DNA from: Eledone cirrhosa
Lineage: Eukaryota
Length of the DNA: 64,000 nt
Assembly (NCBI GenBank): GCA_964016885.1
Contig: OZ024743.1
Coordinates: 4,774,001 to 4,838,000, forward strand
Reading direction: 5' to 3'
Numbering within the stretch: the stretch's first letter is position 1; the number at the start of each line of letters is the position of its first letter. Below, piece by piece: positions 902 to 47,123 of the stretch. The notes beneath the pieces are model-generated. The model was not told the DNA's origin, did no database searches, and saw nothing but the letters and a program-made list of their open reading frames with translations. Position numbers and translations under genes: made by a program.

Positions 902-959
902 CTTTATGCTCTGATGAGTCCCACTTATAGTGCGGATGAAACAATGTTAGCAAGTAAAG
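902..959 (+). ncRNA. Type I minimal hammerhead ribozyme (family A), probably within a Penelope-like pLTR
   Basis: cttta-tgct CTGATGA gtcc-cact tat agtg-c-ggat GAAA c-aat-g TT agca-ag-taaag: canonical core, stem II, 2-bp stem III, GUU triplet, and stem I tgct/agca plus cttta/taaag. Confidence 0.75.
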
Positions 960-1309
960 ATATGCATATGCTATAAGCGTTCTTTGTTATTTATTATATT
1001 ACGGCTCTGTCCTCTGACATTGAGCTAACCTTATACTGCCTGCTGGATAAGTGGAGTGTTATACACCCCTGATCCTTTCCCTAGTATACTATATATATAT
1101 ATATATATATATATATATATTATATACACTAACATATATATATATATTTATGTATACGAAAAATAAACGAAAATATCATCAGAAACGATGTAGTACAATG
1201 AAGATATATATTGGTTTCATGCTTAATATAGTAAAAGGTTTAACTTTTCGGACAAATTTCTTCGAAATCTGCTCATTTCGTCACCTCCTGGAAAGCTGTT
1301 GATCATATT

Positions 1310-1502
1310 ACACACACACGCACACACACACGCACGCACACACACACACACACACACACACACACACACACACACACACACACACACACACACACACACA
1401 CACACACACACACACACACACACACACACACACACACACACACACACACACACACACACACACACACACACACACACACACACACACACCACACACACAC
1501 AC
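1310..1502. repeat. (CA)n microsatellite
   Basis: Near-pure CA tract. Confidence 0.97.
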
Positions 1503-1654
1503 TCTCTCTCTTTGCAAGAGATGTCAACATGAATGGACCTGTTATTTTTATCTAAAGACATTTTTTTCCAATATTTTTTCCATAGTTTTTCCATATTTTT
1601 TCCATATTTTAATAAATATATATATATATATATATATATTTATTTATTTATTTA

Positions 1655-1800
1655 TTAAAATAACAGATTAAAGTTTAAGCAAAGAATCGGTGCTATCACC
1701 CTTAACGGGATCTTCTGAAACTCTACGGTTCTTATATATTTGATATATATTTACCATTATCGAGCCCTCTTTGGATTTTAGTCTTCAAATTTATTATTAT
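1655..1800 (-). mobile_element. Short hammerhead-bearing repeat (family C), damaged copy
   Basis: Matches copies at ~22995-23078, 23225-23310, 26250-26320 and 47040-47225. Here GAAA reads GATA and the distal stem I is deleted. Confidence 0.65.
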
Positions 1801-1888
1801 TACTATATATATATATATATATATAGATAGATAGATAGATAGATAGATAGATAGATAGATAGATAGATAGATAGATAGATAGATAGAT

Positions 1889-2870
1889 ATATTTCTTTTA
1901 TTTGCCACTAGGGCATCAAAAGTGGGACAAGTACAAAGGGGGGAGTTTACACAAAAAGGCGTCCTCAATAAGGAGAAGGCAATAACAAAATATAAAAATA
2001 AAATAAGATATAACAAAAAATAAAATTTTTAACAAAATCCTCAATAGAGAGGAGGCGCCTTGGGGGGTCGCACACACCCCCGAAAAAAGTGTGCAACCCT
2101 TCTCCTCAGGAGCACAGAGAAGGGGTGCTCCCTTGGTCTTTCATCTTCCTCACCTATAGTCTGATGTAGAGTGAAGGCCCATTCACACGGGCCATTCTCG
2201 CCACTTTCACCCATCTTTCATAGAAACGGCTGGGGTGCAGCACCTCTCTCTCCATCCTGATCCTTCTTCCGAAATGATATCGGAAGAAACGGACCAGTTG
2301 TTGGCCAGAGAGAAAGGTGCCCGACCTCAGTCCTTTCAGACGCGTCCACCATACAACCTCTTTCGCCATGGCTATTACGCACAGAAACACCGCCTCTGCT
2401 TCATCTTTGAAGGGGGGAGGCGGCTTGATCATTACAATAGACTCGGTGGTCAACCGGATCGGTCCCACCCTTGACAGCAGTTGTTCGACATAGCCCCACA
2501 GATCGGCTACGCCCGAGCAGTGTACTAATGCGTGTGCAACGGTTTCCTCGTCGCACACGCATCTGGGACAGATCTTTTTGGCGGGGTCCCTACCCGGGCG
2601 CCCGTGTCTGTAGAGCCTTTCTCGAACGGGTAAAGCCCCTCGGTAGCACTGCCAGGCCAGGGACTTCTGGAAGTTGTCCATAGGTCCCGGGCTAAATGTC
2701 CTACCGAAAAGGCTGGCCAGTTCGTCCTCCTCCATGTCTAGGGCTTCTCCGAGGGCGTCGTCGCACCTGCTGCGTACCAGCCCTCTATAGAATGTTGCGG
2801 TGGAGTCTCCACTGATAACCGGATCCGCCTGCCAGAGGGCGGTGAGCGCCTGGGCACACTCAGTGTGCCA
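1889..2870 (-). mobile_element. 5'-truncated Tx1/L1-clade LINE: ORF2 C-terminal zinc-binding (zf-RVT-like) region plus 3' UTR
   Basis: Stop-free frame to 2154: FQKSLAWQCYRGALPVRERL...CPRC..DEETVAHALVHC...LW, a CCHC-type LINE ORF2 C-terminus. Followed by a 3' UTR with AATAAA and a (TCTA)n tail. Confidence 0.85.
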
Positions 2871-2884
2871 TAGATAGATAGATA

Positions 2885-3193
2885 TGTTTCTTTTATTTGC
2901 CACAAGGGTATCAAAAGTGGGACAAGTACAATGGGGGGAGTTTACAAAACAAGGCGTCCTCAATAGGGAGGAGGCAATAACAATATATAAAAATAAAATA
3001 AAATATAACAAAAAATAGAATTATAACAAAATCCTCAATAGAGGATTTTGTTATAAAATATAACAAAAAATAAAATTTATAACAAAATCCTCAATAGAGA
3101 GGAGGCGCCTTGGGGGGATCGCACACACCCCCGAAAAAAGTGTGCAACCCTTTTCCTCAGGAGCACAGAGAGGGGGTGCTCCTCGTTCCTTCC
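2885..3193 (-). mobile_element. Second, shorter copy of the same Tx1/L1 element (3' UTR only)
   Basis: Near-identical to ~1889-2135, with an internal fold-back duplication at 3021-3056; flanked by (TAGA)n on both sides. Confidence 0.85.
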
Positions 3194-44150: not shown

Positions 44151-44525
44151 TCCAGTCCTTGAACGGTGAGCTTTGATCTCCTTATCAATTTGAATAGTTC
44201 AAGTTATGCTAAGATTAGCTTTATTTTTCATCTTTCCAAGATCGATGAAATAAACTACCAGTCAATTGCAGAGGTCAACTTAATCGTCAAACCGCCCCTC
44301 ATATGTTAGAAACTATTATTCATAAAATTAGTAGTAGAATGGGAAATTGGGAGAGTCTGTAGAACGTTGGACAAAATACCTTGTATTTTCAGTTACGTTT
44401 TTTAACATATTGTTCTGGGTTTAAATCTCACTAAAGTTGTCTTGTCTTCTATATTTCTGTGCGTACTCTTCAAGTAGTTTTTTCAATCCAATCGACTAGG
44501 ATCGTGTCAAAATTATGAATCTAGG

Positions 44526-44868
44526 CACAGCCGGATTTATAGCGAGGCGACGTGGCATTTGCTGAAGCCCCCAATCAGTTGAGGACCCTATCCGCGGAGG
44601 TGGGGTCCTATTAAGATAAATATGCCCTGGGACTGCCACGCACACCAGAACAATACTTTCGACAAAAAAAAGTACTTAATGTCAATCTGTATAACTTCAT
44701 AATTCCAATTACATGCGCCAAGCTGACTTTGAAATGTAAACCTAAGGGTTTGTTGTGTTTATTATTATTATTTTTTTTTTTTTTTTTTTTTTTTTTGTAG
44801 CTTGATGCCCTCTCCTCACAAAAAACCCCGAAGTGCCCTGGGCCTCCAAAGTTCTAAATCCGGTTTTG
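44526..44868. mobile_element. Degenerate hAT-like MITE
   Basis: TIRs cacagccggattta / taaatccggttttg; eroded 8-bp TSD aatctagg / atgttagg. Confidence 0.55.
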
Positions 44869-45819
44869 ATGTTAGGCTGATATGTAAGCCACTGAAGTTA
44901 CAGAAACATTAAAATACAAAATGCTTCACAGCATTTAGCTGTGTTCTGAATTTAAATCCTGCTGAGATCGACTTTGCTTTTCCTCCCTAGTGAATTCACT
45001 ATAAAATTGGGTACCAGTGCTACATTCGATTTGATATAATTGACTATACCCCTTCGTATAAATTCATGATGTTAAGTAGATAGGTAATGCATTTTCACCT
45101 GGTTATGGCATCTGTCTACCGCTGGGTGTATTCCATAATGGTTAGGTAACTACTTTCGAGTGTTAGATGGAGTGGGATAATGTAAAATAAAATGATTTTA
45201 GCATATTTACCACTAAACGCCTTCAACATTATGAACAAATAGTCGATTCTATTCCAGCTAATAATTCTATATAGTCCCAATAGTTCATAAATCACAGTCT
45301 GGTTATATACTGTTCAATGAAAATGAGGACGATGATGATGATAATAGTTCTTTCTTTTTTATTATTGCCACAAGGACGACCGACGAAGGAATAATACAAA
45401 GACACATTAGAAAAACAGTAGGAGGTTTTCACAGAATCAATTATGAAAAAGAATAGGCATGGATAATAAACTATCTTACTGTCTACTATAAAAGTGTCTT
45501 TGTCACAAAATATAATGTGTGTCTGTTAGAATAATTAATCACCCCATATCTTAGTAAGAAATGTGCATGTACTTAGATACATGTACATACGTATAAACAC
45601 ACAAACGCAATCATATATCAATCCATCTACCCATCCATACATACATATTATTATTATTCGATAAAATAAAGCACCAGTAATGTAACGAGGGTCGATTTAA
45701 TCGACTTTCCGCTCCCCAAAAATTGCTGGCCTTGTGCCTGAATCAGAAACCTTTATTATTATTACATTGATATCTCAGTCAAAATTTGCCCTAATGAACA
45801 TCAAGCCGCTATCTGCAGC

Positions 45820-46215
45820 CTCAGATATTCAGGACGTATCGGCGGGTCCTTGCTGTTGCCAGTATGCATGCCTTCTAGAGTGTTTCAAAAAAGGGGGCTT
45901 GGCTAATATTCTTTAACAACCTTGGAAGATCTTCAAGATAGTACTTAGTGCTTCTATGACGATGGGGACGACATAGATCTCATCACAGCCCCAAATCCTT
46001 TTCAGTTCACACATTAGATTCTGGTACCGATTTATTTTCTCTTCCTTTTCTTGCACTCTTGTGTCAAAGGGACAAGTTACATCTATAATCAAGCAATATA
46101 ATTTTTTCCTCGTCAAAAGTCTCCAGGTCAGGCCTATTGTGTTCTAATTCTTTGTCCGTGTGTATCCTGAAATCCCACAGCACCTTCATCCGATCGTTTG
46201 CTATCACCGACTGAT
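45820..46215 (-). mobile_element. R4/Dong-clade non-LTR fragment, restriction-like endonuclease domain
   Basis: KVLWDFRIHTDKELEHNRPDL...CLIIDVTCPFDTRVQEKEEKINRYQNL..ELKRIW...VVPIVIEALSTI, a PD..D-type RLE. Confidence 0.85.
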
Positions 46216-46610
46216 GTAATTTGTCAGTGAATCACTTTTCCTATATCATGTCTCCATCCTTTAAAGTGAGTCTATTCTAGGTGTTTACAGTAGGATCCTA
46301 CAGAGCGGACAACCTCCTCCTTCACAATATAGTGTTTATTCTACTTCGTTCTAAGGTCGTGCTCCTCTACATTTTCTTACCCAGATTCTGTCCAAATTTC
46401 TTGTCCCACTACTATTTTTCTACACATAGACACTCTTTTCTCTCTCTCTCCCACACTCACACACGCACACACTCTCTCTCTCTCTCTCTATCTATCTATC
46501 TATCTATCTATCTATCTCTTTCTCTCTCACTCACCCTCACACACACGCACACATATACATGTACATCAACAAATATCAATGTATATCAATACTCAGATAT
46601 GTACATTATA

Positions 46611-46796
46611 GTGAATTGGCAGAATCGGTAGAGAGCCGGACGCCATGCTTTGACGCATAGAGTTACGGCCCTTGCCATTCTGAGTTCAAATCCCGCCGAG
46701 GTTAACTTTGCCTATCATCCTTACGGGGTCGATAAAGTAAAGTACCAGTAATGCACTGGTAATTTCTAGCCTTGTGCCAAAAAGTAGAAACAATTA
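46611..46796 (+). mobile_element. tRNA-derived SINE (short-tail subfamily)
   Basis: A-box tggcagaatcgg, B-box gagttcaaatcc, conserved core and tail. Confidence 0.88.
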
Positions 46797-47047
46797 TAAC
46801 TGTAAACGAGCCAAAAAGTGTTTTCTTTGTTTGTTTGCTTGTTTTTTTGCTAGAAATGCCTGTCAGATTTGGCCAGATCACTTCTTGCGAGCTTTAAAAA
46901 GCTTGGAGGTAGAAAGCACAATCTCAGGTATAATGTCGAAAGACGATATGCCCATTGATCATATGTCTGTTCTATCATAGGAAGCCCTGAGTTAAATAGT
47001 ATATACAATCATATATATATATATATATATATTTATTTATTAAAATA

Positions 47048-47123
47048 ACAGATTAAAGTTTAAGCAAAGAATCGCTGCTTTCACCCTTAACGGGATCTTC
47101 TGAAACTAAAGAAGTCAATCTGT
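47048..47123 (-). ncRNA. Best-preserved family C hammerhead-like fold (U4A core variant)
   Basis: acagattga [cttcttt] agttt CAGAAGA tccc gttaa gggt GAAA gca gcgattctt tgc TT aaact ttaatctgt: all three stems pair. Confidence 0.65.

Follow-up and report, generated by a model that had tools for sequence, protein, structure and literature searches.

What are the short, hammerhead-bearing repeats of Eledone cirrhosa, and do their ribozymes still cut? The question is raised by a stretch of 64,000 nucleotides (hereafter the window) from the 3.0-Gb, microsatellite-rich genome of this species (contig OZ024743.1, positions 4,774,001 to 4,838,000). A preliminary description of the window had recognised three unrelated hammerhead families, A, B and C, next to (TA)n tracts, and had proposed that they form a new system of non-autonomous ribozyme-bearing elements. 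With moderate confidence, we read A, B and C as 3' ends, truncated or inverted, that derive from three autonomous families of Penelope-like elements (PLEs), and the hammerhead of C, whose core carries A in place of U at position 4 (A4), as likely slowed but working. That A, B and C are PLE ends is, on its own, nearly certain. The arrangement of a PLE with its hammerhead in (TA)n is already known, and the A4 core of the most abundant family appears to be the new part.

Hammerhead motifs in the window

A descriptor of type I hammerheads was composed in which position 4 was left free and a U·U or a 5' bulge was permitted at stem II. It was composed post hoc, the motifs being already known. Six matches were found in the window, whereas 100 local dinucleotide shuffles gave 0.04 on average and 1 at most; when U4 was required, four matches were retained against 0.01 in the shuffles. 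The six matches are:

911 (+): family A
3457 (-): family B
33598 (-): family B
33679 (+): family B
26255 (+): family C
47102 (-): family C

The hammerhead motifs of the window are real. The preliminary description was right for these matches; the C copies that it placed at 1672 and 23235 are, respectively, broken and mismatched, as listed below. The cores of A and B conform to the type I consensus (C3 U4 G5 A6 N7 G8 A9, G12 A13 A14, A15.1-U16.1, H17), and C departs from it at position 4. No hammerhead model was matched in focused Rfam scans of A, C and a further family, F, described below, and none stood among the 150 of 232 Rfam matches listed for the whole window.

Two oddities that had been stressed were both confirmed: all three families have U17, and B and C share a U·U at 10.1/11.1. 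A hand count over 25 distinct Hydra rows in File S2 of Craig et al. 2021 (PMC8557442) gave U17 in 10/25, U·U at 10.1/11.1 in 14/25 and U4 in 25/25. Since U17 and U·U are frequent in Hydra-clade hammerheads, both are usual for that clade. The signal AAUAAA, said to lie usually downstream, is present 3' of the hammerhead in 7 of 10 copies checked and not in A.

Coding elements behind families A, B and C

Family A is represented in the window by the following features.

1..1093 (+): 3' end of family A (pseudo-long terminal repeat, or pseudo-LTR, and tail), 5'-truncated, matching the complete element of locus L092 at its 3' terminus with 90%
902..959 (+): hammerhead A, core CUGAUGA at 911-917, GAAA at 938-941, stem III of 2 bp, cut predicted after U948

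This copy starts about 200 bases before the window, closes in (TA)n and exceeds 1.1 kb in total, so that the description of short non-coding units does not fit A. In L092, two A hammerheads flank an open frame of 872 codons, with a period of 5,030 bp and a direct repeat of 1.06 kb. The protein was assigned to no family by Pfam. It carries the motifs RWR, SDKT, YRDD, CxCX5C, CxxCxxE and CxH and a C-terminal VY..YIG region, and its closest named relative is from Argonauta. Family A is a young element. Its 40 top-scoring copies in the genome show 99-100% identity, and 930 exact matches were counted genome-wide.

Four named copies of family C lie in the window.

1642..1806 (-): fragment with a broken hammerhead (GAUA replaces GAAA), joined to an opposite-strand tail piece at 1723-1806
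22988..23343 (mixed strands): pieces flanking a (TA)n tract, 23214-23343 (-; the 23235 copy, A4 core and one stem I mismatch), 23033-23087 (+; a 3' half) and a tail piece at 22988-23030
26251..26330 (+): hammerhead with A4 core at 26251-26299, in a copy truncated at stem I
47027..47227 (-): copy with a complete hammerhead (47048-47123; core CAGAAGA at 47102-47096, stem III of 4-5 bp, predicted cut after U47062) and an opposite-strand tail piece at 47130-47227

In several loci, endonuclease-coding sequence was found about 1 kb 5' of the C hammerhead. Ten loci with long frames were then chosen among 150 listed protein-search matches, and all ten hold 698-726 stop-free codons (713 in one example) at 95-98% mutual identity. 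The C protein is about 43% identical to that of A over the reverse transcriptase (RT) and shows the identical Hydra motif set: a linker of the form CNCRRASGC in A and CNCRNRADC in C, and CPH in A and CKH in C. Both proteins have YRDD, a C-terminal VY..YIG region, CxxCxxE, SDKT and RWR, the last with R replacing K. The CCHH motif is absent from both endonucleases, and no CxxC lies within the GIY-YIG core. Matched C hammerheads form a direct-orientation pair about 3.25 kb apart in 4 of the 10 loci and have an inverted partner in 3 of them. Exact matches to C number 17,900 for a 31-mer over the core and 29,190 for a 3' 28-mer.

Two further observations concern C copies elsewhere. In L273, near 2075, a C hammerhead passes into an inverted B tail 2 bases before the predicted cut, forming a PLE-PLE chimera. 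Most of the best-scoring C copies (L243-L266) have an in-frame TAG at a shared site in the linker, which suggests the spread of a subfamily whose open reading frame (ORF) is broken.

Family B has two entries.

3257..3532 (-): short copy, hammerhead 3424-3462, with a short fold-back at its 5' end
33445..33881 (both strands): fold-back pair, hammerheads 33565-33603 (-) and 33674-33712 (+), with one short and one long 3' end, each lying in (TA)n

Most B copies are ends of about 230 bp. Among the 30 top-scoring loci obtained with a query that began 29 bases 5' of the core, 25 have their start 37-47 bases 5' of the core, 16 of these as fold-back pairs, and 5 extend further. The long copies continue into a broken RT-endonuclease ORF, which ends 389-397 bases before the hammerhead (L128, L130). 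The broken copy in L128 shows GLKF, ADKG and YLDD, a CX4CX2C linker and a CxxC (CCHH-type) endonuclease, and relatives carry RVT_1 and GIY-YIG accessions. By these motifs B is of Neptune or Nematis type, and 5,635 exact 31-mer matches to it were counted. An ORF of YVDD type beside a B end in L018 was considered as B's own and was ruled out, as it lies on the opposite strand and belongs to another element; this further PLE (L018:291-1508, -) has a YVDD RT and a C-terminal endonuclease.

The extension of copies toward RT and GIY-YIG frames, which the preliminary description had advised, thus succeeded for A (L092), C (10 loci) and B (L128, L130), and both the connection to PLEs and the association with (TA)n that it had put forward proved correct, such tracts lying at the ends of A, B, C and a further family, E. 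In general, these 3' ends stop at simple repeats, mostly (TA)n.

Comparison with known Penelope-like elements

Hydra PLEs with hammerheads were described by Craig et al. 2021 (PMC8557442), who find nearly all Hydra families inserted in (TA)n and list Hydra-1_Obim of Octopus bimaculoides. The supposedly new system is therefore of a kind already described; for octopus PLEs with hammerheads, this was the one relevant study among the literature searched. Like the Hydra clade, A and C have a single RT and GIY-YIG ORF with RWK-type and DKT motifs, a CxCX5C linker and no CCHH, a hammerhead near the 3' end with U17 (and, in C, U·U), insertion in (TA)n, and pseudo-LTR, partial tandem, inverted and tail structures. 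The canonical hammerhead near the 3' end is that of A; in C its position and fold are as in Hydra PLEs and the core is non-canonical. Unlike the Hydra clade, C has A4 (the 25 listed Hydra hammerheads all have U4) and a longer, non-palindromic stem III, and A at 5.0 kb and C at 3.3 kb exceed the Hydra length, given as 'generally <3 kb'. The hammerhead listed for Hydra-1_oBim is unlike those of A and C in sequence.

Family B resembles Neptune and Nematis PLEs in its GxKF, DKG and YLDD motifs, its CX4CX2C linker, its endonuclease CxxC and its hammerhead with a palindromic stem III; it differs in that most copies are ends of about 230 bp with a common 5' boundary, with fold-back pairs in 16/30. 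In a quick RT tree without named references, A, C and their matches were set apart from B and its matches.

The preliminary proposal amounts to the alternative in which each of A, B and C is an independent retrozyme family, non-autonomous, within a new (TA)n system. It would account for the common 5' boundary about 45 bases 5' of the core in 25/30 B copies, and E and F are indeed non-coding partial tandems. However, it is refuted for A and C, whose ends are contiguous with intact ORFs of their own, as those of B are with a broken one. The 5' ends of A copies are scattered from -44 to beyond -1500, and the kind of element is in print (PMC8557442), so we hold this alternative to be highly improbable. 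Its claim of non-autonomy fails for A and C, is half right for B, where 25/30 copies are short and an RT-endonuclease element shares the end, and is sound for the unit at 40457. The common 5' boundary of B may reflect a short RNA begun inside the pseudo-LTR, in which case B would be partly non-autonomous in practice.

The A4 core of family C

The core of C is CAGAAGA, with U4 replaced by A relative to CUGANGA, and it was read in all four named window copies; the preliminary description of C did not include this change. Genome-wide, A4 was found in 17,900 exact matches to the 31-mer over the core, against 183 with another base. It is present in every matched hammerhead of the 10 ORF-picked loci and in 33/33 hammerheads of 25 loci examined further. 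Adenosine-to-inosine editing was considered as a source of the variation at position 4 and was rejected, no excess of G being seen (U 40, G 37, C 23 in a hand count of the first 100 of the 183 matches). Contigs from three runs of unknown kind cover the C end and differ from it at position 4 in none of the listed differences; they may be the source of the assembly itself and were left out of account.

The preliminary description had proposed to compare the core with its flanks across copies. As copies decay neutrally after insertion, such a comparison is informative solely between families or in copies found through their ORF. Constraint was therefore measured over the 51 nucleotides of the hammerhead in 35 C loci retrieved via the ORF and not via the hammerhead. 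Rare substitutions occupy 6/1560 positions of the hammerhead (0.38%). The corresponding counts are 39/2835 at four-fold sites (1.38%, p 0.001), 134/9611 for the 5' flank, 227/19295 for the far untranslated region and 5/383 for the tail. The deficit relative to the comparison regions has p values of 0.0003-0.002, or 0.004-0.014 with CpG sites excluded, and of 39 segments compared in C the one over the hammerhead has the lowest rate. The greater conservation is significant for rare substitutions and not for shared-variant sites, which are considered below.

The same change was found in family F, outside the window (L103:845-1030, L277-L301), a non-coding unit of about 440 bp that is unrelated to C and forms partial tandems and inversions beside (TA)n. 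Its type I hammerhead is well formed, with the core CAGAAGA, and its stems I and III measure 8 and 6 bp. A4 is present in 26/26 F copies and, by hand count, in 96 of the first 100 of 238 pattern matches, a minority of copies having CAGAUGA or CUGAUGA; in 4/20 copies, a compensatory double change from G-C to A-U was seen in stem III. No linked ORF was found in 20 F loci.

Among the fetched DNA, a sample biased toward the fetched loci, 31 hammerhead clusters were counted, of which 17 have at least two distinct copies, each with its own stems (pairing is required by the descriptor). These 17 comprise 14 clusters with U4, one with C4 (one locus) and two with A4. The A4 clusters fall among those with a long, non-palindromic stem III (2/4, against 0/13 of the others, p 0.044). 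In the same DNA, about 25 clusters other than the families described here lie in the flanks of the loci, some with covariant U3-A8 cores (e.g. L267:5434, L229), many with palindromic stems III and frequently nested within shared (TA)n tracts.

These data bear on the idea that A4 is a neutral accident in a successful C master copy, for instance a micro-inversion of TTCWGAA, and that the low rate reflects chance or conversion among copies. The C core does sit in a quasi-palindrome, fold-back junctions occur among the U4 copies, and the rate rests on 6 substitutions. Against this, the adjoining tail is equally numerous yet not slowed, no other of the 39 segments is as low, and F has acquired A4 without such a palindrome; we consider an accident of this kind quite improbable.

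Families D and E

The two degenerate candidates of the preliminary description, at 42041 and 40457, differ in nature: the former is a decayed copy of a family with a regular core (D), the latter a young unit with a fixed, broken core (E).

42000..42194 (-): decayed copy of family D, an older hammerhead-bearing family whose best other copies are 81-88% identical
40414..41121 (+): partial tandem of the family E unit, with 181-bp direct repeats at 40414-40594 and 40941-41121, ending in (TA)n

The other D copies mostly have a CUGAAGA core, a palindromic stem III and A17, and no linked ORF was found in 20 loci. Family E is a young, non-coding unit of 527 bp with a hammerhead-like relic (40457), a weak stem II and the core CUGAGGU, with U at position 9. 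This core was read in all of the first 100 of 867 matches, with the position left free. No ORF was linked to E in 15 loci. Its ribozyme is probably dead, and E is the clearest non-autonomous element of the window. A permuted hammerhead around the second CUGAUGA of E (40516) was sought and rejected, no GAAA partner being seen on inspection.

Retrozymes as non-autonomous PLE derivatives have been published (PMC7229834; preprint 10.64898/2026.07.22.740005; review PMC6765202). Like non-LTR retrozymes, E and F lack coding sequence, carry a hammerhead and form partial tandems. They differ from them in size (527 and about 440 bp, against RNAs of 170-400 nt), in having mostly 1-2.4 copies, in their PLE-like inversions and in their non-consensus cores.

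Is the A4 hammerhead still a ribozyme?

The success of E gives weight to a second interpretation of the same elements, in which the A4 hammerhead of C is catalytically dead, is kept as a structure or sequence bound by the RT-endonuclease, and has aided the expansion of C through its loss of cutting. C far outnumbers A and B, E has multiplied with its broken core, and no truncation at the predicted cut site was seen in 30 C and 30 A loci. The literature offers it some ground, since Craig et al. 2021 (PMC8557442) suggest that hammerheads are possibly dispensable or parasitic and Perreault et al. 2011 (PMC3088659) by default reject any core change. Catalytic death is nevertheless unlikely in our opinion: the remaining core bases and all three stems of C are retained, the unrelated F has the same change together with long stems and a compensatory pair, and U4 is a tolerant position (PMC3088659, PMC4075628). 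A natural U4C variant of a viroid is weak in vitro and sufficient in vivo (PMC3088659). No U4 mutant was met among 50 escape plaques (PMC4075628), and U4 ranks in the literature among the more tolerant core positions. This published support is indirect.

We return to the hammerhead of C, the most abundant family. It still mutates slowly and so is likely a working natural variant, and with A at core position 4 it is likely a slowed yet functional ribozyme. Like the natural core variants of PMC3088659, it has one core change in an otherwise complete ribozyme; unlike in them, the change has become fixed across some 18,000 copies in this genome and is found again in another family, F. No natural A4 core was found in the literature searched, and A4 is not mentioned in the available portions of PMC3376415, PMC7151607 or PMC3088659; older tables of core mutants and work on PLE variants may already cover it.

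Several observations weigh against this interpretation. In fold predictions, whose energy models leave out tertiary contacts, the hammerhead is not the ground state of A or C (ensemble shares of about 5e-5 and 7e-5), and the core of the 47048 copy is paired with a CUUCU that lies upstream. Shared-variant sites taken alone, in the unbiased set of loci, give 0/51 in the hammerhead against 14/324 in the flank (p 0.23), and substitutions in related C copies are partly non-independent. Truncation at the predicted cut site was seen in 0/30 C loci and 0/30 A loci. Mobilisation does not require cutting, since E has amplified to at least 867 copies although its core is broken. The compensatory change in F is one event, and 321/500 shuffles reach one such pair; the link of A4 with a long stem III was drawn post hoc. 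The clade names come from motifs and not from a tree with named references.

Proposed course of mobilisation

From known PLE biology, the GIY-YIG endonuclease would nick (TA)n and the RT would copy the RNA from its 3' end, usually with an early stop or a fold-back. Such stops and fold-backs could give rise to the short tails, the inverted pairs and palindromes, and the short and long 3' ends, both of which were found in A, B and C. As inserted copies are intact across the predicted cut site, the RNA that was copied had either not been cut there or had been cut and re-joined, and cutting by the hammerhead would be slow or late. Minimal metazoan PLE hammerheads tested by Cervera and de la Pena 2014 (PMC4209133) had a low, dimer-dependent activity, and cleavage followed by circularisation is proposed there. 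A and B may be held back in this manner, by a short, self-complementary stem III that depends on a dimer; C, whose stem III is long enough for a monomer, may be held back by its A4 core. E and F are likely passengers of such PLE enzymes.

Other features of the window

Scattered remnants of another, older Hydra-type ORF were detected by tblastn.

22466..24649 (mixed strands): RT 22466-22783 (-), linker 24094-24423 (+), endonuclease 24560-24649 (+)

The GIY-YIG remnant reported at 24566 is accordingly real yet small, a piece of 30 residues, with 16/31 residues identical to the C endonuclease (E 1e-4 in an 800-base subject) and the other pieces nearby. Further features are as follows.

2157..3020 (-): open frame of 288 codons, also found in L017 and L130, presumably resembling the C-terminal part of ORF2 of a long interspersed nuclear element
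4754-16497 and 53908-56479: very long CAC-based arrays (11.7 and 2.6 kb)
37205-37524: GTG tract
37578-39130: tandem array of a 28-bp unit, 55 near-perfect copies
16854-17003 and 47247-47487: fold-back elements, the latter with a (TA)n tract at its centre
46611-46797, 48301-49084, 50547-50723, 53204-53412, 56840-57277, 61676-61858 and 62687-62890: many copies of a dispersed repeat of 190-350 bp, which we take to resemble a short interspersed nuclear element

Significance for Penelope-like elements

The role of the hammerhead in PLEs is treated as an open question in the literature (PMC8557442, PMC4209133). We tentatively put forward, as a possibility less secure than the activity of C itself, that CAGAAGA is an active natural core which arose twice here, both times on long stems III, and which throttles self-cleavage and so spares RNA for copying. 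If so, it would be a second throttle besides dimer dependence; descriptors built on CUGANGA would miss tens of thousands of ribozymes and would need widening. The families also form a natural series, from A (young, canonical) through C (very large, autonomous, A4) and F (non-coding, A4) to E (broken core), which could show whether amplification of these elements accompanies fast, slow or no cutting.

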